From positions 892-64,891 of the forward strand of contig JBQTKD010000034.1 in NCBI GenBank assembly GCA_052386455.1: a stretch of DNA of 64,000 nucleotides. The letters run 5' to 3'. Position numbers and translations under genes: made by a program. Under the pieces are notes generated by a model. That model saw only the letters and a list, made by a program, of their open reading frames with translations, had not been told where the DNA came from and searched no databases. Below are positions 2,956 to 56,500 of this stretch, in pieces; the first letter of the stretch is position 1; each line of letters begins with the position of its first letter. This DNA is from Sporichthyaceae bacterium (GTDB lineage Bacteria > Actinomycetota > Actinomycetes > Sporichthyales > Sporichthyaceae).

Positions 2956-3642
2956 CTAGCGGGCGGGTCGCGGGAAGCACGCTCGCGAGTCCGACGGGCA
3001 ATCGAGAATCTTTGCCGCCGCCACGTTTGCGCCGTGCTTCTCGATGCGCCGCAGGACGGCTTCGATCTCCTCGGCGCGGGCCCGCACGGCGGCAGCGTCG
3101 GTCGCGATCCCCTCCGTCGCCGCGACCGCGCGGTCGAGCCCACTCTTCGCCAGGGCGGTCTGCCGGTCCGCGGCGGCCAGGGTGGTGCGGATGTCCCCCA
3201 CGCCCTCGACGATCGCCTTCACCACGGGGCTCAGGTCCCCGAGCAAAGCGCGGATCGCAGACACGGACGCGTCGATGTTCGCCACGTGGATGCGGGTGCT
3301 GTCGGAGTCGTCGCGGATCCCGTTGGTCTCCTCGACCATCGTCGTGGTCGCATCCGCCGCGCGCCCCAGGCCCTCCGCGATGGGCAGCAGGCCGGTGGCG
3401 ATCCGCTCGGTCAACACGCCGGTGCGGTCCAGCAGGGCGAGCGCCTCGAGGTCGCCGTCCACCGCGCTCAACTGGGGCGTGATCGCGCCGCCGATGTCGT
3501 CGTCGATCTGCGTGGCGTCGTAGGCGGTCTTGGTCAGCAGCAGGAACGCGGCCAACGCGAAGGCGCCCACGATGGCGAGGTTGAGCGTGGGTGCGCGCCC
3601 TGCGGTCGACTCCGCCGAGAGCCACGCCCGAAGCCTCAGCAC
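2956..3642 (-). CDS. Cassette 2 type-C protein: single-pass alanine-rich helical membrane protein with a C-terminal C-x6-C loop
   Basis: ORF 2956..3642(-). GTG start in a GTGCTGA overlap with the upstream stop. TM segment LNLAIVGAFALAAFLLL; the protein ends LDCPSDSRACFP. Confidence 0.75.
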   Translation of the reverse strand: MLRLRAWLSAESTAGRAPTLNLAIVGAFALAAFLLLTKTAYDATQIDDDIGGAITPQLSAVDGDLEALALLDRTGVLTERIATGLLPIAEGLGRAADATTTMVEETNGIRDDSDSTRIHVANIDASVSAIRALLGDLSPVVKAIVEGVGDIRTTLAAADRQTALAKSGLDRAVAATEGIATDAAAVRARAEEIEAVLRRIEKHGANVAAAKILDCPSDSRACFPRPAR

Positions 3643-4966: not shown

Positions 4967-5568
4967 CAGGACTCCACTACGCGGAAGGACTCCGCCACGC
5001 GATCGAAGGCCGGGGCCAGCGCCGCGAATCCGGTGTCCGGCAGCGTCTGGAAGACCAGCGTGTACATCGTGCGCCCGTCGAAGGCGAACCAGTGGGTGTG
5101 CGCCCCGCGCAGCCCGGAGCTGTCGAACGTGTAGAGGTACTGCACGCCCGGCAGGCCGCCCAGGGTGGTCGGGGACGCCTGCAACACCTTCAAGCCGGCT
5201 TCGGGTGCGCCCAGCACTGCGTCGGTCACCGCGCGCAGGTCCGCCAGGTTCGTGGAGTCCACCGGCTCGGCGAGCTCGGTCCGCTTCACGCTGACGGCGT
5301 CCTGCCCGCCGACGTGGAGCAGGACTCCTCCGTCCACCGACTCGGGCCGCCACCCGGCCGGATGCGAAAACTCGAACCGGCCCGCGGGGTCCCGGTACGG
5401 CACGACCTGCTCGGTGCTCGCCGCGGCGAGCACCGGAGCGTGGGACGAGCCGCCGGCGACGCCGAGCGCCGCTCCGCCCACCAGCAGCCCAAGGGTCAGG
5501 CCGCCGGCCAGCGCAAGCCGCCGCAGGCGACGCCGCCCCAACCTGGGAGTGGGCTGCGGATCAGCCAT
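4966..5568 (-). CDS. Cassette 2 N-terminally anchored exported alpha/beta protein, tentatively PsbP/Mog1-like
   Basis: ORF 4966..5568(-). ATG start preceded by GGAAGGA. Signal/anchor segment RRLRRLALAGGLTLGLLVGGAALGVAGG. Motif YRDPAGRFEFSHPAGW. Confidence 0.78.
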   Translation of the reverse strand: MADPQPTPRLGRRRLRRLALAGGLTLGLLVGGAALGVAGGSSHAPVLAAASTEQVVPYRDPAGRFEFSHPAGWRPESVDGGVLLHVGGQDAVSVKRTELAEPVDSTNLADLRAVTDAVLGAPEAGLKVLQASPTTLGGLPGVQYLYTFDSSGLRGAHTHWFAFDGRTMYTLVFQTLPDTGFAALAPAFDRVAESFRVVES

Positions 5569-35628: not shown

Positions 35629-36537
35629 ATGACGGTGGTGGTGACCGGCTCGGCCGGGTTCCTCGGCCGTGCCGTGATCGCGCGCCTGGTGGCGCAGGGG
35701 CGCCCCGTACTCGGCGTCGACCGTCTACCCGCCCCGGTCCAGGGCCCCGGTCACCGCGAACTGTGCGTCGACCTGCTCGACGGCGACGCGCGAGCCACGG
35801 CGGCGCTGCGCAGCGCCCGTGGCGTGATCCACCTGGCGGGGTGCCCCGGCGTACGGGACCGTCGCCCGGACATCGCCTGGCTGCGGCACCGGGACAACGT
35901 GCTCGCCTCCGCCGCGGTGCTCGGGGCCGCGGGCCTCGAGGTGCCGGTAGTGGTCGCTACCTCGTCGTCGGTGTACGGCGGGACAGTCGAGGGCCGCGCA
36001 TGCAGGGAGGACGACCCGCTGCGCCCACGCGGTGGCTACGCCCGCAGCAAGGCCGCCGTCGAGTCGCTGTGCGAGGCCCACAACGCGGCCGGTGGCACCG
36101 TCGTCCTGGCTCGGCCGTTCACCGTGGCCGGCGAGGGCCAGCGCCCGGACATGGCGCTCGCGCTGTGGATCGAGGCCGCGCTCGCCGACCGCCCCCTGCG
36201 TGTACTGGGCAGCCTGGACCGCACCCGGGACATCACCGACGTCCGCCAGGTGGCCAGGGCCCTCGTCGACCTGCTCGACGCCGGAGTGCCGGGCCCGGTG
36301 AACGTCGGCACCGGCGTCGGCCACACGCTCTCCGCCATGATCGCCGCGGTCGGAGCGGAACTCGGCCGAGCCGTCTCGGTCGAGATCGAGCCGGCATCGC
36401 ACGACGAGGTCCGCGACACCCTCGCCGACACCACCCGCCTCCGCGAACTCGTCGGCTGGGCCCCGACCACCGACCTCCGCGCCCTCGTCGCCCGCCAGAT
36501 CACGACCGCCCCTACCCGGCACTACGCAATCGCCTGA
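35629..36537 (+). CDS. NAD-dependent epimerase/dehydratase (SDR family)
   Basis: Tail of ORF 35506..36537(+). The ATG at 35629 has GGAGG 7 nt upstream. Rossmann motif VVVTGSAGFLG. Catalytic YARSK. Confidence 0.85.
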   Translation: MTVVVTGSAGFLGRAVIARLVAQGRPVLGVDRLPAPVQGPGHRELCVDLLDGDARATAALRSARGVIHLAGCPGVRDRRPDIAWLRHRDNVLASAAVLGAAGLEVPVVVATSSSVYGGTVEGRACREDDPLRPRGGYARSKAAVESLCEAHNAAGGTVVLARPFTVAGEGQRPDMALALWIEAALADRPLRVLGSLDRTRDITDVRQVARALVDLLDAGVPGPVNVGTGVGHTLSAMIAAVGAELGRAVSVEIEPASHDEVRDTLADTTRLRELVGWAPTTDLRALVARQITTAPTRHYAIA

Positions 36538-47532: not shown

Positions 47533-49013
47533 TCGCGTTCCACCGTGGTCACGGTGAGGTCCGGGACGACCGCCGGGGACTCGACCGTGAAACGGCCGGT
47601 GTCCAACGAGGTGACGGTGATGCCCGCCTCGTCGATGCGCAGCACTCGGGCCGCGTGCACCGAGCCGGACACGGCCTCGATCACCACCGAGTAGCGGTCG
47701 ACGCCCTTCGGCCCGGGGTCCAGCACGAGCAGGCGGCCGGCCTCGATCGTGACCGTCCGGGTGCGCGGCTTTCCGGTCCCGGCGTAGACGAGGATCTTCA
47801 CCTCGGCCGCCTCGTCGGGGGCGGCGAGCAGCAAACGGGTGCGGCTGCCGTCGCCGCTGCGGCCGTCCGGTACGGCGGTCGGGCCGGAAAGGGCGGCGGC
47901 CGGGCCGGCCCAGGCCTGCTCCTTCCCCCCGCCGATCTTTGCGATGGTGCGGACGGCGCCGACGACCGGGACATCGGAGGTCAACACGACCGCCAACGGC
48001 TGTCCGGGGTCCGCGGCGTTGAGGTCGACCTCCTGCACCTGACCTGCGCGCAGTTCGACGACGTCCGCTCCCGCGGGCGCGAAGTCCGTGGTGGTGCCGA
48101 GAACGCGGATCTTGACGATCGCGTCCCGGTCGCCGGGTGCGAGCAGGAACAGCTTGCGGTCGTGGGCCTCGGCGGGAATGCCGGGGACGACCAACTTCTT
48201 CGCCGGGCGCACCAACGGGTCGAGCCAGTCCGCGCCGCGTCCGCCGATCTCGGCGAGGTGCAGCGCCGCGGACACCTGACCGCGGTCCACCACCACGCCG
48301 ACGGCGATGCGCCGCCGGTTGTCCGCCAGCCCTTCGAGGGAGACGACCCGGGTGCTGCGGGCGGCGACGACGAGCTCGCTCACGTTGGGCACGTCCAGCC
48401 GGCCGGCCTCGTCCCACAGCGTGAGGTCGACCGAGGCCGAGGTGCCGGCCGCGTTGGTCAGGACGAGCTGGGACTGCCGCCCGGTCTGGGTGGAGGCGCC
48501 GACGAACCAGGCCGAGGCGCCCGCGGGGAGGCAGGACGCCGAGGAGAGGCCGCGCGTCGGACCCTCGCCGACGGCGACGACGCGCTCGGCCGCCAAGCCG
48601 GGCGCAAGGCCACCGGTGGCGCGGACGACGGCGGCCGGGGAGTCGGTGCCGGACAGGTTGATGCGCGAGACGCCCGGCTGGGTGCGTCGAAGCGTCGGCT
48701 TGTCCTCGCCAGGGAGTTCGTCCACGCGCATCGCGCCGTCGGCCTTCTCCCCCAGCGCGGTGGAGACGGTCAGGCGGTCGGTGGACGCGCCCGCGGCCGG
48801 TGTCGCCGGGCAGGCGAGGACGGCGGCCCGCACGTCGTCGACGGTGGCTCGCACGGACGCCGCTCCACCGCCGGCAAGGTGCACGATCAGCGCGACGGCG
48901 ACCAGCGATCCGCCGACGGCGGCCGCGCTGAGGCGGCCGTCGCCGACGAGCCGGAGTACCCAGCCCGCCGGGGCCGCCCCGGCCGCGTCGCGCGCCCTGC
49001 GTCGCTCGTTCAT
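47529..49013 (-). CDS. DUF5719-like exported protein
   Basis: C-terminal part of ORF 47529..52106(-). The ATG at 49013 forms an ATGA overlap with the upstream GT2 stop. One N-terminal TM segment, then a beta-rich sequence. Confidence 0.75.
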   Translation of the reverse strand: MNERRRARDAAGAAPAGWVLRLVGDGRLSAAAVGGSLVAVALIVHLAGGGAASVRATVDDVRAAVLACPATPAAGASTDRLTVSTALGEKADGAMRVDELPGEDKPTLRRTQPGVSRINLSGTDSPAAVVRATGGLAPGLAAERVVAVGEGPTRGLSSASCLPAGASAWFVGASTQTGRQSQLVLTNAAGTSASVDLTLWDEAGRLDVPNVSELVVAARSTRVVSLEGLADNRRRIAVGVVVDRGQVSAALHLAEIGGRGADWLDPLVRPAKKLVVPGIPAEAHDRKLFLLAPGDRDAIVKIRVLGTTTDFAPAGADVVELRAGQVQEVDLNAADPGQPLAVVLTSDVPVVGAVRTIAKIGGGKEQAWAGPAAALSGPTAVPDGRSGDGSRTRLLLAAPDEAAEVKILVYAGTGKPRTRTVTIEAGRLLVLDPGPKGVDRYSVVIEAVSGSVHAARVLRIDEAGITVTSLDTGRFTVESPAVVPDLTVTTVERD

Positions 49014-52000
49014 ACCGGTTCCTCGATCCGTGCCCGACGACGAGCCGCGGGAACCACCGGGACCGCGTCCTCGTCCTCGTCGCTGGAGCGGCGGCGAGCC
49101 GCGGGCAGCGCCAAGACGACGAGGACCAGCAGCCCGCAGCCCTGCAGGAACGCCCAGGCCGGCGTGGTTCGGTCGACGTGACGAACCGTCAGTTCGCCGC
49201 CCTGCGGGGGAAGCGTCCACGCCTGGGCCCAACCCTCGCGGGTCAGCGTCGAGAGCTTCACCCCGTTCAGGCGCGCCTCCCAACGCCGGCCGGCCGGCTC
49301 GGCCAGGGCCAGAATTCGCTTCTCGGAACCGTCGGGCACGGCCGCGCTCGCAGCGACCGCCCCCGAGGGGAGCACCGCGACGGTCCGGGCCTCTTCGAGC
49401 ACGCGAAGCCGACCGGTCGGCAGACTCACGCGCCAGAGGCGGTCGCCGCCGACGGCGCTGACGCGCTCGAGTCCCGGAACGGCGTCCAGCGCCGCCGCGA
49501 CCTGTGGGGCCACCGGCGCGCGCACGACGACGTACCGGACCGCGAAGTCGGCGAGGCGCTGCGCCTGGGCGTCGCCCCGGCCGGAGACCAGGTCGATCGC
49601 GAGGGCCTGCAGCACGCGAGCCGTCGGGCGGGGCACGGAGAGTTCGGCGTCGCCGAAACGCGGCCCGGCGTCGCGCACCAGCGCGTAGGACACCGCGGGG
49701 GGTACGGATCCGGCCGGGACCGCGGCGAGGGAGTCGCCGGTGGAGGAGCGCAGCACCAGCGTCCGCGAGCGGTCCGCGGTGGCGGACTCGGCGGCGACGT
49801 GCACCGGAACCAGCGCGGCCGAGGCGCGGTGCAGCGGGCCGTCGGCTCCGCGCCACAGCCACGCGCTCGCGCCGAGCACCGGGGACAGCAGTGCCACCGC
49901 CGCCAACGAGCCCGCCACCAGCTGCACGCGGCCGAAGTCTCGGGCCACGAGCCGTTCGGCCTGGCCCGCGCAGCCGACCAACGCGGCGACGAGCATGCCT
50001 GCGGTGGCCAGCGCCAGGGCGGGCCCCGGCCAGGCGGCGGCCGGGTGCCCGCCGGAGGGGGCGGCCACCGAGACCCGCGAGGCGAGCAGCGCGACGACGA
50101 GCGCGCCGCCGGCGACCGTCCAGCCGAGCAGCACGGTCAGCCGGTCGCGGGCCACGATCAGTCCGACGATGCCGGCGGCCACGACGCCGATGCCGATCCA
50201 CGCCGGGCCGGAGCCGGGCCCGGCCGGGTTCAGGAGCAGCAGCCGCCACGGCTGGATCTCCGGGTCGGACAGTCCGGGGCCGGCAGGACCGAGGTCGAGC
50301 AGCAGGCGGTCCGGATGGCGGATCCAGAACAGCGAGAACGGCACGAGGAGAAGGAACGGCACGAGGGGGACGGTGCCGATCCGAACGAGTCGCGTGCGGT
50401 CTCGGACGAACGCGGCCAGGACCACGGCGGCGGTCGACACGAACAGCCAGAGCAGCGGAGCGAACGCGGCGATCACGACGAGGAGCAGGGCGGCGGTCCA
50501 CGCCGCGCGCGGCGTGCCGCCGCCCGCCCAGGCCCGGACGACGGACCGCAGCAGCGGCGGCAGGAGGACGATCGCGACGACGGCGCCGAGCCGCCCGGCC
50601 GCTACCGCGCCGACGAGCGCCGGGCTCAGCGCGTACGCGGCCGCGCCCCAGAACCGCAGTGCGGGCGTCGTCGGCAGCCCGCGCGCGGACAGCCAGGCGG
50701 AGAGGCCCGCCAGTGGCACGGCCCCGACGAAGAGGATCGCGATCAGCAGGGACACGTTGCCGAACAGGGGCAGCGCGGCCAGGGCGAGCAGCGCCTGCGC
50801 CGGGGCGGCGGTGCTGCCGCTGCCGGCGCCGACGGCGTGCCAGCCGTCGACGTAGGAGCCGAGCAGGCCACGCGAGCCGTCGACCAGGGGCAGCATCGCG
50901 CCGCCGAAGAGCGAGCCGTCGCCGAAGAGCCGGCGCGAGGCCAGCAGCGAGATGCCGAGCAGGCCGAGAACGAGGACGGCGGCGGGGCTGCGGCCGACGC
51001 GGCGCAGCAGCACGCCACCGGCGCTGCGGTCGAGTTCGGCGACGTCCACGTCGCCGTCGGCAGGCCCGGCGCGGTGCTTGCCGATGGCGTCGCGGTCCAC
51101 GCGGAAGCCGTCGAGGGCGTGGGTGAGGGCCTCCCGAGCGACCTCGAACTGGTGGCCCGGTGGCGGGAAGAGCCGGCGAAGCGTGGTGGGGGCTACCTGG
51201 TGATGGGCGCGGCGGGCGCGGCGCATGCGCCGGATCGCGCGCGGGCGGATCAGAACGGACCAGACGGCACGCAGTTCGTCGGCGGCGTGGCCGGGAAGCT
51301 TGGCGACGAGGTAGCCGACGGCGCGGAGCAGGCTGCCGAGGAGCAGCCGGGGCCAGGCCACTACGAAGGCCCGAGTGGAGAGGTTGGCCAGCAGGACGCG
51401 CAGCGCGCCGGCACGGTCGAGGTGGTGCACGCGGCCGGAGCCGACGTCGACGTCGCGACGCTCCCGGTAGGCCGCCTCGGCGTGGTAGACGACGGCAGCC
51501 GGCACGACCGCGACCTTGAACCCGGCCAGCCACGCCCGCCAGCACAGGTCGACGTCGTCGCGGAGCAGTTGCAGGTGCGGGTCGAAGCCGCCGAGGGAGT
51601 CCCAGACGTCGCGGCGGATCAGCATTCCGGCGCTGGAGACGGCGAGGGTCTGGGACCGGTGGTCGTGCTGGCCCTGGTCTTCTTCGCCGATCTCGATGCC
51701 GGTCTCGCGGCGGCCGCCGCCGTCGACGGTGACGCCGACCTCGAGCAGCACGCGGCGGTGGTACCAGGCGCGCAGCTTGGGGCCGAGGACGGCGCGGTTC
51801 GGGTCGTCGAGGGTGTTGGCGAGCAGGTGCGCGAGCGCGTCCGGTTCGGGCTCGGCGTCGTCGTGCAGGAGCCAGATCCACTCGACGGCGTTCTCCGGCA
51901 CCTGGCTGGAGGCGTCGGCTCGCGCGATGGCGGCCTTGACGGCGGCGCCGAAGCCGCTGGTGCGCGGGCAGCGCACGATGTCGGCGTCGTCGACCCAGTC

Positions 52001-52174
52001 CCGGACCTGCTCCACGGAGCCGTCGAGGCTGCCGGTGTCCGCCACCACGAGCCGCTGCCAGGGCGCAAGCTGCTCGAAGAGTGCCGGCAGCACCTGCGGG
52101 AGCCACCGTCCGCCGTCGTGCGTGACGAGCACTGCCGTCACGTAGACGGAACGGTGTTCGCTCTCGGCAGGCAT
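49010..52174 (-). CDS. Family-2 glycosyltransferase fused to a large polytopic membrane domain
   Basis: ORF 49010..52174(-), 1054 aa. N-terminal GT2 domain with VLVTHDGGRWL, VADTGSLDGS and LLHDDAEPEPD. About 600 aa of multiple TM helices and an extracytoplasmic C-terminal region follow. Confidence 0.85.
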   Translation of the reverse strand: MPAESEHRSVYVTAVLVTHDGGRWLPQVLPALFEQLAPWQRLVVADTGSLDGSVEQVRDWVDDADIVRCPRTSGFGAAVKAAIARADASSQVPENAVEWIWLLHDDAEPEPDALAHLLANTLDDPNRAVLGPKLRAWYHRRVLLEVGVTVDGGGRRETGIEIGEEDQGQHDHRSQTLAVSSAGMLIRRDVWDSLGGFDPHLQLLRDDVDLCWRAWLAGFKVAVVPAAVVYHAEAAYRERRDVDVGSGRVHHLDRAGALRVLLANLSTRAFVVAWPRLLLGSLLRAVGYLVAKLPGHAADELRAVWSVLIRPRAIRRMRRARRAHHQVAPTTLRRLFPPPGHQFEVAREALTHALDGFRVDRDAIGKHRAGPADGDVDVAELDRSAGGVLLRRVGRSPAAVLVLGLLGISLLASRRLFGDGSLFGGAMLPLVDGSRGLLGSYVDGWHAVGAGSGSTAAPAQALLALAALPLFGNVSLLIAILFVGAVPLAGLSAWLSARGLPTTPALRFWGAAAYALSPALVGAVAAGRLGAVVAIVLLPPLLRSVVRAWAGGGTPRAAWTAALLLVVIAAFAPLLWLFVSTAAVVLAAFVRDRTRLVRIGTVPLVPFLLLVPFSLFWIRHPDRLLLDLGPAGPGLSDPEIQPWRLLLLNPAGPGSGPAWIGIGVVAAGIVGLIVARDRLTVLLGWTVAGGALVVALLASRVSVAAPSGGHPAAAWPGPALALATAGMLVAALVGCAGQAERLVARDFGRVQLVAGSLAAVALLSPVLGASAWLWRGADGPLHRASAALVPVHVAAESATADRSRTLVLRSSTGDSLAAVPAGSVPPAVSYALVRDAGPRFGDAELSVPRPTARVLQALAIDLVSGRGDAQAQRLADFAVRYVVVRAPVAPQVAAALDAVPGLERVSAVGGDRLWRVSLPTGRLRVLEEARTVAVLPSGAVAASAAVPDGSEKRILALAEPAGRRWEARLNGVKLSTLTREGWAQAWTLPPQGGELTVRHVDRTTPAWAFLQGCGLLVLVVLALPAARRRSSDEDEDAVPVVPAARRRARIEEPV

Positions 52175-52338
52175 GCGCAGTCCGTCGGGTCGCCGGTAGC
52201 GCAGGAAACGATCAGCGCCCTTCGCAGGGTAGGCCCCGCGACGCAGGCGTCGGGCTCACTGCGCAGATCCGGTGACACGCGCCGCCGGGCATATCGGACC
52301 TACCCGGCGCAACCGCTTCGCGCGCCCCGTCGCCAATC

Positions 52339-52412
52339 GCGCTGTACAGCGCTCCGTGAGTGCCGGCGGCCACCTACTGCGGCGTGTCGTCGCAAGCTGC
52401 GCTGTACAGCGC
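52339..52412. repeat. Pair of GCGCTGTACAGCGC palindromes, 60 bp apart
   Basis: Exact 14-mers at 52339-52352 and 52399-52412. The second extends to the 16-bp palindrome TGCGCTGTACAGCGCA. The pair lies between the whiB stop (52457) and the GT2 start (52174). Confidence 0.85.
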
Positions 52413-52456
52413 AGTTGGTTGCTACAGAGCGGCCGCGCGGCGCAAGACGGGTGTTG

Positions 52457-52717
52457 TTAGACCGCGCGCTTCTTGAGACGGCGGCGCTCGCGCTCGGACA
52501 TGCCGCCCCAGATGCCGAAGCGTTCGTCGTGGGCGAGGGCGTACTCGAGGCAGTCGCCGCGCACATTGCAGGACAGGCAGACCTTCTTGGCCTCGCGGGT
52601 GGAGCCGCCCTTCTCGGGGAAAAACGCCTCCGGGTCCGTCTCCGCGCAGAGCGCCTGGTCCTGCCAGTTGGACTCGACCTCTACGCCGCCAAGCAGGGGA
52701 AGAACTACCTCACCCAT
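52457..52717 (-). CDS. whiB: WhiB-family Fe-S transcription factor (WhiB2/WhiB-like by context)
   Basis: Lower part of ORF 52457..52855(-). The ATG at 52717 has GAGGAGG upstream. Four Cys in ALCAETDPEAFFP...KKVCLSCNVRGDCLEYAL. GIWGG turn and a basic tail. Confidence 0.93.
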   Translation of the reverse strand: MGEVVLPLLGGVEVESNWQDQALCAETDPEAFFPEKGGSTREAKKVCLSCNVRGDCLEYALAHDERFGIWGGMSERERRRLKKRAV

Positions 52718-53054
52718 GGCTGCCTCCTCGACCCTCAAGTTGGCGGGGTAGGTCCCGCCGGGCGCCGGCACGATCCGGGCTAACCGGAACGAAACGACAC
52801 GCGTGAAATTACACTCTTGCCAATCCTTTGGCGTCAACCGCCGGGCAGGCCCCAAACCGCGACACGCCGGGCGACACGCCGGACATTTCGCCCAGCATTA
52901 ACAACAACCCCACCCGTTGCTCGAGTTGTACCACGTCCCGGGGCCCCAGCTGAAACCCGAGAAGGACTCGGAAGCAAAGCCTTTCAAGACTGCGCAAATC
53001 GGCCACGCGGCACCCGGTCGCCGTGCGGGGCTGCCCGCTTGCGACGATGCCCGC

Positions 53055-54059
53055 ATGCGGATCGTGGCGTTGGCCGGCGGGGTGGGAGCGGCGCGCTTCC
53101 TGCGCGGTCTGCTGGCGCATCTTGCGGAGGCCGACCCCGGTGCGGAGGTCGTCGTGGTGGGCAACACCGCGGACGACGTGGTGCTGCACGGCCTGCACGT
53201 CTCCCCCGACCTGGACACCGTCATGTACTCCCTCGGCGGGGGCATTCACCCCGGCCAGGGCTGGGGCCGCGAGGGCGAGACGCACGCCGTCCAGTCCGAG
53301 CTCTCCGCCTACGGCGAGGGTCCCGACTGGTTCTCCCTCGGCGACCGAGACATCGCCACGCACCTGATCCGTACCCGCCTCCTGGCCGAGGGCGCCACGC
53401 TGTCCCAGGCCACGGCGGTGCTGTGCGAACGGTGGTTGTCGGCGAGCTGGCGAGCCGACCGGACACTGTCCGGCTTCCGCCTTCTGCCGATGACCGACGA
53501 CCCGGTGACGACGCAGGTGACCGTCGCGGGCGAGAGCGGGATCCGCACGCTGCACTTCCAGGAGTACTGGGTGCGGCTGGGGGCCCCCGAGGCCCTGTCC
53601 GTCTCATTTGTCGGTGCCGACAAGGCGACGCCCGCTCCGGGGGTCGTCGATGCGATCCGCGGCGCGGACGTCGTGCTCTTCCCGCCGTCCAACCCGGTGG
53701 TCAGCATCGGCACGATCCTGGCCGTGCCGGGCGTCCGAGAGGCGGTCGCCGGCACGGGCGCGCCCGTCGTCGGCGTCTCGCCGATCGTCGGCGGCGCTCC
53801 GGTGCGGGGCATGGCCGACCGCATGCTCGCCGCCATCGGCGTCCCCACCGCCGCCGACGCCGTAGCCCTGCACTACGGCGCCCGCAGCAGCGGCGGCGTC
53901 CTGGACGGCTGGCTGGTCGACGACGCCGATGCGGCCGCAGTCGAGCCGCTCACCGAGGCCGGCATCGCCACCCGAGCCCTCCCCCTGCTGATGCGGGACG
54001 TCCCCACCACCGCCGCCATGGCCGCCGCCGCGCTCGATCTCGCCGCGGCCTGCCGATGA
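53055..54059 (+). CDS. fbiA: 2-phospho-L-lactate (or EPPG) transferase CofD/FbiA (F420 biosynthesis)
   Basis: Tail of ORF 52917..54059(+), starting at the ATG at 53055. The sequence reads MRIVALAGGVGAARFLRGL...VVGNTADD...VSPDLDTVMYSLGG. Confidence 0.92.
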   Translation: MRIVALAGGVGAARFLRGLLAHLAEADPGAEVVVVGNTADDVVLHGLHVSPDLDTVMYSLGGGIHPGQGWGREGETHAVQSELSAYGEGPDWFSLGDRDIATHLIRTRLLAEGATLSQATAVLCERWLSASWRADRTLSGFRLLPMTDDPVTTQVTVAGESGIRTLHFQEYWVRLGAPEALSVSFVGADKATPAPGVVDAIRGADVVLFPPSNPVVSIGTILAVPGVREAVAGTGAPVVGVSPIVGGAPVRGMADRMLAAIGVPTAADAVALHYGARSSGGVLDGWLVDDADAAAVEPLTEAGIATRALPLLMRDVPTTAAMAAAALDLAAACR

Positions 54060-54073
54060 GCCCCCGCACTGTC

Positions 54074-54125
54074 CGTAGCGTCCGAACAGGTGGTCGCTAT
54101 AGCGCCCGTTCTTTCGGACGTTACG
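54074..54125. repeat. Intra-operon palindromic element of the ACGTCCG-arm family, between fbiA and fbiB
   Basis: CGTAGCGTCCGAA (54074-54086) pairs with TTCGGACGTTACG (54113-54125) at 12 of 13 positions. The centre CGCTATAGCG (54095-54104) matches the centre of the element at 19-112. Confidence 0.7.
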
Positions 54126-54141
54126 AGGGTTCGAGGCCGCG

Positions 54142-55431
54142 TTGAACGTCGAGATCTTCCCCGTCGAGGGGATCGGGGAGGTCGTCGAGGGGACGGACCT
54201 CGCCGAGCTGACGGTGCGTCATGCCCCCTTCCTGCGCGACGGGGACGTGGTGGTGGTCTCGAGCAAGATCGTGAGCAAGGCCGAGGGCCGCACGATGCAG
54301 GCACCAGATCGGGAAGCGGCGATCGACGCCGAAACGGTCCGGGTCGTGGCCTACCGGCGGGGCACTCGAATCGTCGAGACCCGGCACGGACTTGTCATGG
54401 CCGCGGCAGGCGTGGACGCCAGCAACGTCGCGCCGGGCACCGTCCTCCTGCTGCCCGAGGATCCGGACGCCTCGGCTCGCGCGATCCGGGCGGGGATCGC
54501 GGCCCGCGCCGGGGCGACCGTGGCCGTGCTGATCACCGATTCGTTCGGGCGGCCCTGGCGCCAGGGCGTCGTCGACGTGACCATCGGCGCCGCCGGTCTA
54601 GACCCGGTGGACGACCTGCGCGGCGGGACCGACACGTACGGCAACCCGCTGGAGGTCACCGTCGTCGCGGTCGCAGACGAGCTCGCCTCGGCGGCCGAGT
54701 TGGTGAAGACCAAGCTCGGCGGAACGCCGATCGCCGTGGTTCGCGGACTCGACGTCGTGACGGCCGCGGACGGTCCCGGCGCGCGTGCGCTGCTCCGCCC
54801 GTCGGCAGACGACATGTTCTCCCTCGGGACCGCCGAGGCCCGCCGCACCGCGGTCACCGCTCGCCGGACCGTGCGGCACTGGGCGCCAACGCCGGTGGAC
54901 CGGGCCGCGGTGGACCGGGCGATGGCTGCTGCGCTGACGGCCCCGGCCCCGCACCACACGCATCCCTTCCGGTTCGTCGTCCTCTCCGATCCGGCCGCCC
55001 GACCGGCCTTCCTCGACGCCCTGCTCGAGGCGTGGATCGCCGATCTGACCGCGGACGCGTTCACGCCCGAGCAGATCGCCAGGCGCACCGCCCGCGGCGA
55101 CGTGCTGCGCCGCGCCCCCCTGGTCGTGGTCCCGTTCCTGACCGGCGAGGGCATGCACGACTACCCGGACGATCGCCGCAACGCCCACGAGCGCGAGATG
55201 TTCCTCGCCGCCGGCGGCGGGGCCGTGCAGAGCCTGCTGATCGCCTTGGCCGCCGAGGGCCTCGGTGCCTGCTGGATCTCCTCCACCCTGTTCGCCCCGG
55301 ACGTCACCCGCGCCGCCCTGGACCTCCCCGCCGACTGGCAGCCGCTCGGCGCCGTCGGCATCGGCAACCCCCTCGACGCCCCCGCGGACCGCCCCCCAAT
55401 CGACCCCACCCCCTACGTCCTCGAGCGCTGA
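54142..55431 (+). CDS. fbiB: Bifunctional F420 gamma-glutamyl ligase / dehydro-F420-0 reductase (CofE plus nitroreductase domain), FbiB
   Basis: ORF 54142..55431(+) with a TTG start. CofE motifs [13 protein letters not shown] and [12 protein letters not shown]. The C-terminal nitroreductase-like domain contains RRTVRHW. Confidence 0.92.
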
Positions 55432-55450
55432 CCCCGCCGCATCGCACGGA

Positions 55451-55524
55451 GCGCTGTACAGCGCTGCCGGCGACGCCACGCCGGGTCCAAGCCCCCGGAG
55501 GTCGCACGGGGCGCTGTACAGCGC
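55451..55524. repeat. Second pair of GCGCTGTACAGCGC palindromes, 60 bp apart
   Basis: Exact 14-mers at 55451-55464 and 55511-55524. Both are preceded by TCGCACGGr. The pair lies between convergent stops at 55431 and 55547. Confidence 0.85.
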
Positions 55525-55546
55525 AATGGCGTGCAAGCCGGTGGGG

Positions 55547-56500
55547 CTAGTGGGCGCGGTGGTCCTGGATGGTGATGCGGGGGCCGCGGCGGGGAGCGCG
55601 GATGCCGGAGAGGCCGATGAAGGAGCAGGCCCGGTAGCGGTGGCCGGCGTAGGGCTCGAGGAGTTCGAGCATCCGGTCGTCGTCGACGCGTTCGCCGATC
55701 AGCGCGAAGCCGACGTCCTTCGCCAGGTGGTAGTCGCCGACGAGCACCGCGTCCGGGTCGCCGTGCGACCGCTGCCGGACCTCGGCGGAGGTCCAGACCC
55801 CGATCCCGGGCAGCGCCCGTAGCCGTTGGTCGGCAACTGCGGTACCGAGCGCGACGGTTTCCTCCAGACGCCCGGCGTAGCGGACCGCGTTCACGATGGT
55901 CCGCGACTGCGGCGGCTCGACCCCGGCGCGGTGCCACGCCCAGGAGGGAATCTGCGCCCAGGTCGCGGGCTCCGGCGGCACCGTGAGGCCGGCGGGCGCG
56001 GGGCCGGGTGCGGGAGTCCCGTACTCGGCCACCAGGTACCGCCACGAGGCCTTGGCCTGTCGTCCGGTGATCTTCTGCTCGAGAATCGCCGGCACGAGGA
56101 CGTCGACGACGCGGTCGCAGGCGCCGATCCGGAAGCCGGGGTGCTGCCGCATCGCCCGCTCCACGACGGGGTGGTGCGCCTCGAAGCCGGAGTCGTCGTC
56201 GTCCGCTCCGCACATCCGCGGCGCCCGGTCCAGCAGCCAGTCGGCGCCCGGACCCCATGCGGCGGCCGCGACCTCCCCCGTGGACCGCTGCGCCGTGAGA
56301 CGCAGCGTCCCCGGCCCGTCCGGCGTCCGAACCCCGCGCCAGATCGCGCCGACCGCGTCGGTCAGATAGCAGGGGTCGCCGGCGCCGCGACGCAGCACGG
56401 CCACGGTGCGGTGCAGATCGAGCGCGCGGCCCGGGGACCAGATCCGCTCTCGAGTCGTTGACACGCCGGCGAGTCTGCCCGAGGGCACCGACAAAGGCAC
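55547..56500 (-). CDS. DNA-3-methyladenine glycosylase II-like (HhH-GPD superfamily, AlkA-like)
   Basis: ORF 55547..56500(-). HhH-GPD region LRALPGIGVWTSAEVRQRSHGDPDAVLVGDYHLAKDVG. The start is uncertain. Confidence 0.78.
   Translation of the reverse strand: MPLSVPSGRLAGVSTTRERIWSPGRALDLHRTVAVLRRGAGDPCYLTDAVGAIWRGVRTPDGPGTLRLTAQRSTGEVAAAAWGPGADWLLDRAPRMCGADDDDSGFEAHHPVVERAMRQHPGFRIGACDRVVDVLVPAILEQKITGRQAKASWRYLVAEYGTPAPGPAPAGLTVPPEPATWAQIPSWAWHRAGVEPPQSRTIVNAVRYAGRLEETVALGTAVADQRLRALPGIGVWTSAEVRQRSHGDPDAVLVGDYHLAKDVGFALIGERVDDDRMLELLEPYAGHRYRACSFIGLSGIRAPRRGPRITIQDHRAH

Follow-up and report, generated by a model that had tools for sequence, protein, structure and literature searches.

Paired palindromes beside whiB and fbiB in a Sporichthyaceae genome are probably gene-less copies of a dispersed REP-type repeat

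The stretch of DNA analyzed here, called the window throughout, comprises 64,000 nucleotides of a Sporichthyaceae genome (C34:892-64891 of the source genome, G000) and carries four exact copies of the 14-bp sequence GCGCTGTACAGCGC. The copies form two doublets, which stand on either side of a segment containing a whiB-family gene and the genes fbiA and fbiB. The source assembly has a size of 4.75 Mb in 154 contigs, a G+C content of 70.7% and a completeness of 88%. The features from the glycosyltransferase family 2 (GT2) gene to the gene convergent with fbiB are:

49010..52174, minus strand: GT2 glycosyltransferase gene, downstream of whiB (Pfam Glyco_tranf_2_3 and Glycos_transf_2)
52330..52421, no strand: doublet 1, composed of arm TCGCCAATC, core 52339-52352, a 46-bp spacer, core 52399-52412 and arm AGTTGGTTG
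52457..52855, minus strand: whiB-family gene (Pfam Whib, E 2e-26; start codon uncertain)
52917..54059, plus strand: fbiA/cofD (Pfam CofD, E 6.8e-47; start codon uncertain)
54080..54119, no strand: gene-less copy of a second palindrome family, GTCCGAA-N-GCGCTATAGCGC-N-TTCGGAC, between fbiA and fbiB
54142..55431, plus strand: fbiB, F420 glutamyl ligase with nitroreductase domain (Pfam F420_ligase, E 2.4e-51; Nitroreductase, E 2.4e-29)
55442..55533, no strand: doublet 2, composed of arm TCGCACGGA, core 55451-55464, a spacer with GACGCCACGCCGGG, core 55511-55524 and flank AATGGCGTG
55547..56500, minus strand: convergent gene with no assigned function and no Pfam match, taken from the open reading frame list; homologous in relatives, its stop adjoins doublet 2

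The whiB-fbiAB region thus holds three passenger elements of two families, the two GCGCTGTACAGCGC doublets and the CTATAG-type element. The core GCGCTGTACAGCGC is a perfect 14-bp palindrome, found exactly at 52339-52352, 52399-52412, 55451-55464 and 55511-55524. A scan of the 64-kb window yielded no further copy with 0 or 1 mismatch; two matches with 2 mismatches, at 35803 and 46542, are unrelated, and the resulting total of six was reached in none of 100 shuffles. In the direction of transcription, doublet 1 follows the stop codon of whiB and precedes the GT2 gene, which like whiB is encoded on the minus strand. Doublet 2 takes up the interval from the stop codon of fbiB (55429-55431) to that of the convergent minus-strand gene (55547-55549). 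The first-pass annotation of this DNA had described exactly this arrangement: four exact 14-mers in two pairs with no other copy in the window, a distance of exactly 60 bp between the cores of each pair, pair 1 between the whiB stop and the GT2 start, and pair 2 between convergent 3′ ends. The scan, the sequence with its gene calls and the stop codon positions bear it out on every point. The annotation also held the pairs to be inverted relative to each other, because the reverse complement of 52329-52361 matches 55442-55474 at 27 of 33 positions. This match was recomputed and is correct; however, over the whole doublets the non-core identity amounts to 33/74 in the direct and 30/74 in the inverted register. 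Since the two values are nearly equal, an inverted relative orientation is no robust property of such near-palindromic doublets.

The 14-mer is dispersed over the genome: 35 exact copies are present on 20 contigs of G000, compared to 0.07 expected. By an nhmmer profile search of G000 we collected 55 units in 29 arrays, none of them in a clear coding frame. Aligned on the core, the unit reads TCGC-N5-GCGCTGTACAGCGC-N5-GCGA, the core being better conserved than the flanks; it is often extended to ...CCCGGCGTGGCG TCGCACGCA core TGCGTGCGA CGCCACGCCGGG..., giving a palindrome of ~56 bp. Position counts show that the unit ends in a symmetric, paired TCGC...GCGA and lacks a GTAG tag. The C and the G that would extend TCGC into a CGTC tag each occur in about half of the units, and the tag, if present, pairs with GACG. 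Three main arm types (CGCACG, CGCCGG and CGCCAA) are combined freely, with the CCAA type mostly at the outer end of an array.

Out of 26 pairs of neighbouring cores 17 are exactly 60 bp apart, 2 are at 61 bp and 7 at 94-96 bp. The longer period is caused by an extra core-less half unit inside, ...cttcccttcgc plus arm, and is seen in the arrays at C47:14991-15181, C82:128707-128802, C40:12419-12513, C28:52920-53014 and C28:54165-54259. In these half units cttcccttcgc is followed by a normal arm, for example TGCGTGCGA or TGCCGGCGA, and the motif resembles a purine-rich ribosome-binding site on the opposite strand. Genes around the arrays were called by a simple method based on the G+C content of third codon positions (GC3), which is crude and misses some genes. 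By these calls nearly all arrays are intergenic, commonly at a distance of 3-40 bp from a gene end, and two flagged overlaps with genes look like stop-to-stop reading frame artefacts. Twelve arrays are placed between tandem genes, 7 between convergent genes and 5 between nominally divergent genes, several of the latter reflecting genes that the caller missed.

We compared G000 with a set of 15 Sporichthyaceae genomes and with an outgroup of 26 genomes from other families. Among the relatives named in the following, G001 (a complete genome) and G002 belong to the same genus, G010 to another genus, and G004 and G008 are further relatives. Exact copies of the 14-mer number 35 in G000, 7 in G002, 6 in G010, one each in G004 and G008 and zero in G001; the 26 genomes from outside the family have none. 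A search of 185,579 species genomes for the doublet pattern turned up just 2, both of them Sporichthyaceae metagenome-assembled genomes, and 4 metagenome contigs have it as well. No viral contig carries it, and a phage origin was rejected on this basis. One lower-GC, unrelated metagenome contig (L031 370-442, ERZ1673695 NODE-2616) contains the 14-mer twice, 59 bp apart, within a tandem repeat and with quite different flanks (ttgcgggttaacctcactaa-core-ttagtgaaaggcc), and is probably an independent occurrence.

Both doublets are missing from the orthologous sites. In alignments doublet 1 is absent from the corresponding intergenic region of G001, G002, G004, G008 and G010: the stretch specific to G000 runs from ~52326 to 52450, while positions 52175-52300, upstream of the GT2 start, are conserved in the relatives. 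Doublet 2 is missing in G001, in which the convergent stop codons are ~11 bp apart and relative to which 55438-55543 (106 bp) is an inserted stretch. Downstream of fbiB, G002 and G004 have the gap to the convergent gene filled with other, unrelated sequence; the G008 contig stops shortly after fbiB. The filling sequence in G002 (L001 ~2990-3130) and G004 (L002 ~2750-2850) is repeat-like and contains GGATGACGTC, the core of a repeat family that frames a different gene of G000 (C71, see below). From these sequences, the fbiB-convergent gap appears to accept different elements in different lineages. The divergent whiB-fbiA region, judged by its length, seems to be another insertion site: it measures ~3.7 kb in G001 (C1:3889508-3893263, between L003 and L007) and ~90 bp in G000, and in G002 the two genes are on separate contigs.

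Turnover is also visible elsewhere in the genome. G002 has a doublet (L014 1507-1609, G002:C67) at a place where G000 (C22:8787-8807) has 19 bp of other sequence. The 103 bp replacing these 19 bp (C22:8788-8806) give a net gain of 84 bp, a multiple of three, and the flanks are 88% identical and coding-like, so that this doublet may be an in-frame insertion within a gene. The array at G000 C15:37893, on the other hand, is shared with G002 by descent, and its cores are better conserved than the spacer.

These observations make it very probable that the palindromes at whiB and fbiB are dispersed insertions resembling repetitive extragenic palindromes (REPs), with no role as operator or in inversion. 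The structural, REP-like role that the first-pass annotation had considered for pair 2 is supported by the 35 dispersed copies, by the 55 units in 29 arrays and by the lack of conservation of both sites in the relatives. The annotation had named hundreds of copies scattered without positional bias, the mark of a generic REP, and a lack of conservation in relatives among the outcomes that would speak against it; this is partly borne out, the motif being scattered over the genome and the two sites not conserved. In a wider sense, each pair of 14-mers is in our view likely to supply the cores of one gene-less doublet belonging to a dispersed, lineage-specific repeat of the REP or REPIN type (REPINs being REP doublets forming hairpins), with a probable cognate protein that is described below, and we consider this the best explanation overall. 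As far as sequence comparison can tell, the whiB-fbiAB doublets are lineage-specific insertions of ~100 bp and no switch for whiB-fbiAB. Their local effect would most likely be limited to the strong hairpins that they add at transcript 3′ ends.

Other roles for the doublets at this locus have to be weighed against this. The first-pass annotation suggested an operator role for pair 1. Operators for a transcription factor whose regulon takes in whiB, the GT2-DUF5719 operon or both would be consistent with a perfect 14-bp palindrome, fixed spacing within the pairs, the position of pair 1 upstream of the GT2 gene and a core that is more conserved than its flanks. However, pair 1 is absent in five relatives despite their conserved GT2 promoter-proximal sequence, and the complete congeneric genome G001 has zero copies. 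At least 7 of the 29 arrays, namely pair 2 and at least six others, lie between convergent 3′ ends, and the arrays are mostly found 3-40 bp from gene ends and not at promoters; an operator function is therefore very unlikely. We give even less credence to the proposal that the pairs are recombination sites which invert, as also conceived in the first-pass annotation, or excise the 3.1-kb whiB-fbiA-fbiB segment. Identical palindromic cores do stand on both sides of the segment, and array pairs at most 3.5 kb apart are more frequent in the genome than expected (three versus 0.56, P = 0.02). But one of these three is the nuclease locus at C28 (see below), and with this locus set aside the two remaining close pairs have P = 0.10 in random placements; given 29 arrays, two arrays within 3.5 kb are not unusual. 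Across the stretch that starts with the GT2 gene and ends with the convergent gene, G001, G004 and G008 show the same arrangement and strand of all homologous blocks; in G002, in which the locus is split over two contigs, the strand is unchanged in both. In addition the repeats are lacking in these relatives, the relative orientation of the doublets is ambiguous, and Pfam detects no recombinase domain in the five bracketed and flanking genes. The absence of the doublets from orthologous sites together with the unchanged gene order argues against an ancestral operator and lends no support to an invertible segment.

It is less improbable, but still unlikely, that the doublets are kept as hairpin terminators or as stabilizers of mRNA 3′ ends, doublet 2 acting in both directions, for which some REPs provide a demonstrated precedent; this would be a secondary effect and is compatible with REP-type insertions. 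A palindromic core allows base pairing between the two cores of a doublet, and this pairing of core 1 with core 2 is seen in the predicted RNA fold of doublet 2, which reaches -77.2 and -78.2 kcal/mol on the two strands (z -5.7/-6.2). Arrays are found a few bases past stop codons, and REPs are thought to act in termination and mRNA stabilization, according to PMC3733652. In contrast, the fold of doublet 1 (-56.6/-58.3 kcal/mol on the two strands, z -2.1/-2.4) is only marginally better than that of shuffled sequences, the relatives lack the elements at both sites, and neither intrinsic (U-tract) terminators nor sigma-70-like promoters were predicted at the doublets. Rfam gave no relevant match in window 51500-56500 or around the C28 locus.

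A candidate for the cognate protein is encoded at C28:53150-54100. This gene is framed by two arrays 1.15 kb apart and is the only tightly framed gene among the 29 arrays: the upstream array has 2 units and lies at a distance of 136 bp from the start codon, whereas the downstream array has 3 units and is 86 bp away from the stop codon. The protein comprises 317 residues and matches Pfam AbiEi_4 and, weakly, AbiEi_1; distant homologues carry DUF559 (PF04480) and REase_MTES_1575 (PF18741). We searched an AlphaFold model of the protein (mean predicted local distance difference test score, pLDDT, 93.9) with Foldseek. The N-terminal two-thirds matched AbiEi of S. agalactiae (6y8q) and Rv2827c of M. 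tuberculosis (1zel), and the C-terminal ~100 residues matched the catalytic domain of I-Bth0305I (3r3p, target-normalised TM-score 0.76) and, weakly, 1vsr. Across 53 homologues E205, D237, E247, D249, G250 and R272 show no variation, and K253 shows almost none. On the evidence of this model, the protein is an AbiEi-type winged helix fused to a putative nuclease with a Vsr/I-Bth0305I-like fold of the PD-(D/E)XK type.

The association between this gene type and the core extends to other genomes. Orthologues framed by a GCGCTGTACAGCGC-type core are found in G002 (68% identity) and in G010 and a JGI soil contig (56% identity); the arms around their framing cores differ (GGTCAC...GTGACC). Another orthologue with 55% identity in the same glyoxalase-linked position (L024) has no TGTACA core but GCTCATTAAGGAGC palindromes in both flanks. 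In G001 the syntenic gene is 41% identical, with a neighbouring glyoxalase at 77% identity, and four units of the form GGTCGCC-GGCATCCATGCC-GGCGACC are found upstream only, the TGTACA 14-mer having zero copies in this genome. Among four related genomes the gene type and the core thus occur together in three, and one congener has a divergent gene, a different repeat and zero copies.

A profile search identified 11 paralogues of the C28 type in G000. Between the 350-bp flanks on the two sides of a gene, an exact match of 13 nt or more is present in 5/11 paralogues versus 15/400 control genes, and one of 16 nt or more in 3/11 versus 4/400. By eye, a repeat is recognizable in both flanks of six paralogues besides C28, on contigs C87, C56, C71, C77, C82 and C17. 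For C87 the repeat consists of GGTCAGTACTGAGC doublets (AGTACT; 8 sites versus 0.02 expected). The C56 paralogue (C56:37296-38204) is framed by GTCCGAA-GCGCTATAGCGC-TTCGGAC at C56:37092 and 38182, and this CTATAG family has 22 copies genome-wide in G000, including the one at window 54080-54119. The C71 repeat, GGATGWCRTCC, has 57 matches, and the C17 motif is weakly enriched (7 copies versus 2.6 expected). At least five paralogues are each flanked by a different palindromic repeat, three of these repeats being shown to be dispersed. A relative of the C87 type in G001, and likewise its counterpart in Sporichthya polymorpha, has GCTCATGCATGAGC doublets in both flanks, with a ~62-bp period.

Many of these AbiEi-Vsr-like paralogues also have a conserved pair of DnaA-box-like motifs just upstream, TTGTCCACAGG-N~15-TT(A/T)TCCACAGA, for example at C56:37140-37200, C77:3260-3310, C9:65210-65270, C57:97980-98020, C71:15890-15940 and C17:10110-10170. 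The C28 gene, which is framed by the TGTACA family, is without such a pair; a similar motif, cctgtggataag, is located upstream of the Sporichthya polymorpha relative (L026).

The closest known counterparts are the REP and REPIN families of Proteobacteria with their REP-associated tyrosine transposases (RAYTs), together termed REPtrons (PMC2817692, PMC3116915, PMC3333891). Both systems feature short GC-rich palindromic intergenic repeats in tens of copies, a fixed-spacing doublet as the usual module, species-specific sequence, one chromosomal gene framed by the repeat, and paralogues or orthologues with their own cognate repeats. In contrast to REPtrons, the host is an actinobacterium, there is no Y1/HUH transposase in the 15 family genomes and no GTAG tag, and the framed gene encodes an AbiEi winged helix with a PD-(D/E)XK nuclease, a fold that is unrelated. 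A RAYT/IS200 transposase as mobilizer was rejected because Y1_Tnp (PF01797) found no match in G000 or the 15 family genomes, whereas control genomes were matched. The bacterial interspersed mosaic elements (BIMEs) of enterobacteria and the CGTC-tagged REPs (PMC3733652) likewise form mosaic arrays from a single palindromic unit that varies in its arms and is spaced by a few discrete lengths, they prefer gene ends, and CGTC REPs also lack an evident dedicated transposase. The ...gCGTCGCACG... flanks suggested membership in the CGTC REPs, but these are described in the same source as having stems of 8-9 bp, loops of 4-5 nt, an unpaired CGTC tag and a CCA tail. Our repeat has a 14-bp palindromic core with symmetric, paired outer bases TCGC...GCGA, and membership was rejected by stem, loop and tag. 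That tagged-REP survey reports no tagged REPs for Actinobacteria (PMC3733652). Miniature inverted-repeat transposable elements (MITEs) are similar in being small, gene-less and insertion-polymorphic. Here, unlike in MITEs, no target-site duplication and no terminal inverted repeats distinct from the internal palindromes are found; with no related transposase-bearing insertion sequence and no transposase-bearing copy among the 29 arrays, this class was discarded.

On the protein side, AbiEi antitoxins (6y8q, 1zel) share the fold of the N-terminal two-thirds of the C28 protein, and in PMC7319586 they are described as binding inverted repeats next to their own gene and autoregulating via their own promoters. 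The C28 gene differs from them: it has no AbiEii/DUF1814 neighbour, its product carries a C-terminal nuclease fold, and its repeats occur on both sides as well as scattered. An AbiE type IV toxin-antitoxin pair was excluded, no AbiEii/DUF1814 gene adjoining it in G000 or G001. The C-terminal ~100 residues superpose on the catalytic domain of I-Bth0305I, a member of the Vsr-like (DUF559) group, with acidic and lysine residues kept; I-Bth0305I, however, is a phage intron-encoded homing enzyme with another DNA-binding region, while the C28 gene is chromosomal, syntenic across genera and repeat-associated. In the literature searched we found no paper on the 14-mer, none linking DUF559 or AbiEi with dispersed palindromic repeats and none combining REP, RAYT and Actinobacteria.

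Taken together, the repeat family is probably the cognate DNA of the C28:53150-54100 protein. The core is plausible as the site of a dimeric DNA-binding protein, for which the AbiEi-Vsr-like protein is the candidate. By analogy to AbiEi on inverted repeats, the winged helix of this protein would bind the palindromic core, the protein probably being a dimer and occupying paired sites; we put the chance of such binding at somewhat below even. The nuclease domain might then nick or cut at the core, and the cut could lead to copying, homogenisation, maintenance or movement of the doublets. That the protein spreads the repeat in this way is a possibility we hold with considerable reserve. The broadest version of the proposal is equally tentative: Sporichthyaceae, and probably many Actinobacteria, would possess a RAYT-independent repeat-and-enzyme system in which each AbiEi/Vsr-like paralogue recognises its own 14-bp core (TGTACA, AGTACT, ATGCAT and CTATAG types) and cuts there to copy, homogenise or move ~60-bp doublets. 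The whiB-fbiAB palindromes and the CTATAG element between fbiA and fbiB would then be recent products of two such enzymes.

Alternatively, the repeat may be a REP-like selfish or structural element unrelated to the C28 nuclease, which spreads or persists by some other route, for instance gene conversion, slippage during replication or a transposase that was lost or is missing from the assembly, the C28 arrays being the gene's own operator or an insertion hotspot. We see this as a minority possibility. An unrelated element would fit the dispersal of the sites, their intergenic position and their polymorphism, the completeness of G000 of only 88%, the report that CGTC-tagged REPs too lack a dedicated transposase (PMC3733652), and the autoregulation of AbiEi proteins by way of inverted repeats within the promoters of their genes (PMC7319586). 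But the arrays are present on both sides of the gene, not just upstream, in three genomes of two genera; several paralogues are flanked on both sides by different repeats, far above the level in control genes; and at a conserved syntenic position the core changes with the gene copy. Several points nevertheless weigh against the REP-type repeat with a cognate nuclease that we favour. With G000 88% complete in 154 contigs, the true copy number may be higher and a transposase could have been missed. The co-occurrence of gene and repeat comes from a small check on four related genomes. Comparisons of filled and empty sites reveal neither a target-site duplication nor a sharp common terminus. The arms flanking each core are complementary no more than by chance, and non-core self-complementarity is 0.43 within doublets compared to 0.48 between doublets (17 doublets); with the free combination of arms, covariation gives no evidence of selection for a long hairpin. 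More simply, the protein may use the framing arrays as its autoregulatory operator, the scattered copies being unrelated to nuclease activity and having spread in another way.

For whiB-fbiAB the outcome is deflationary: the palindromes are best treated as recent passengers outside the regulation of a developmental regulator or of F420 synthesis. The element itself is ordinary in kind; for the combination of repeat and nuclease we found no description in the literature searched. Good descriptions of REP-type repeats come mainly from Proteobacteria, in which a tyrosine transposase maintains them, and we found no equivalent actinobacterial partnership in that literature. In the present case a single genome has several repeat families, each found on the flanks of a different copy of a gene for a DNA-binding nuclease, with gene-less copies that are polymorphic between congeners. 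A single protein and a single 14-bp site hence suffice to test how REP-like repeats are kept up in Actinobacteria. There are practical consequences too, as such repeats break assemblies, form hairpins at gene ends and can mislead motif-based regulon prediction.

The surroundings of the C28 gene deserve a brief description. In G000 a UvrD-like helicase gene is located upstream, and downstream follow an unassigned 249-aa imuA′-like open reading frame and an IMS/ImuB-like gene; no tRNA is present at the locus. In G001 the neighbours of the syntenic gene are the glyoxalase, then MT3502_N, IMS and DnaE2. A LexA-type SOS box, TCGAACATTTGTTCGA, is found at G000 C28:54420-54445 (L022 ~5420-5445), and TCGAACACGTGTTCGA occurs at G001 L028:6850-6880. 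The box lies between the nuclease gene, or its downstream array, and the cassette of imuA′-like gene, imuB and dnaE2, and in several genomes the repeat-framed gene is situated directly upstream of this SOS mutagenesis operon.

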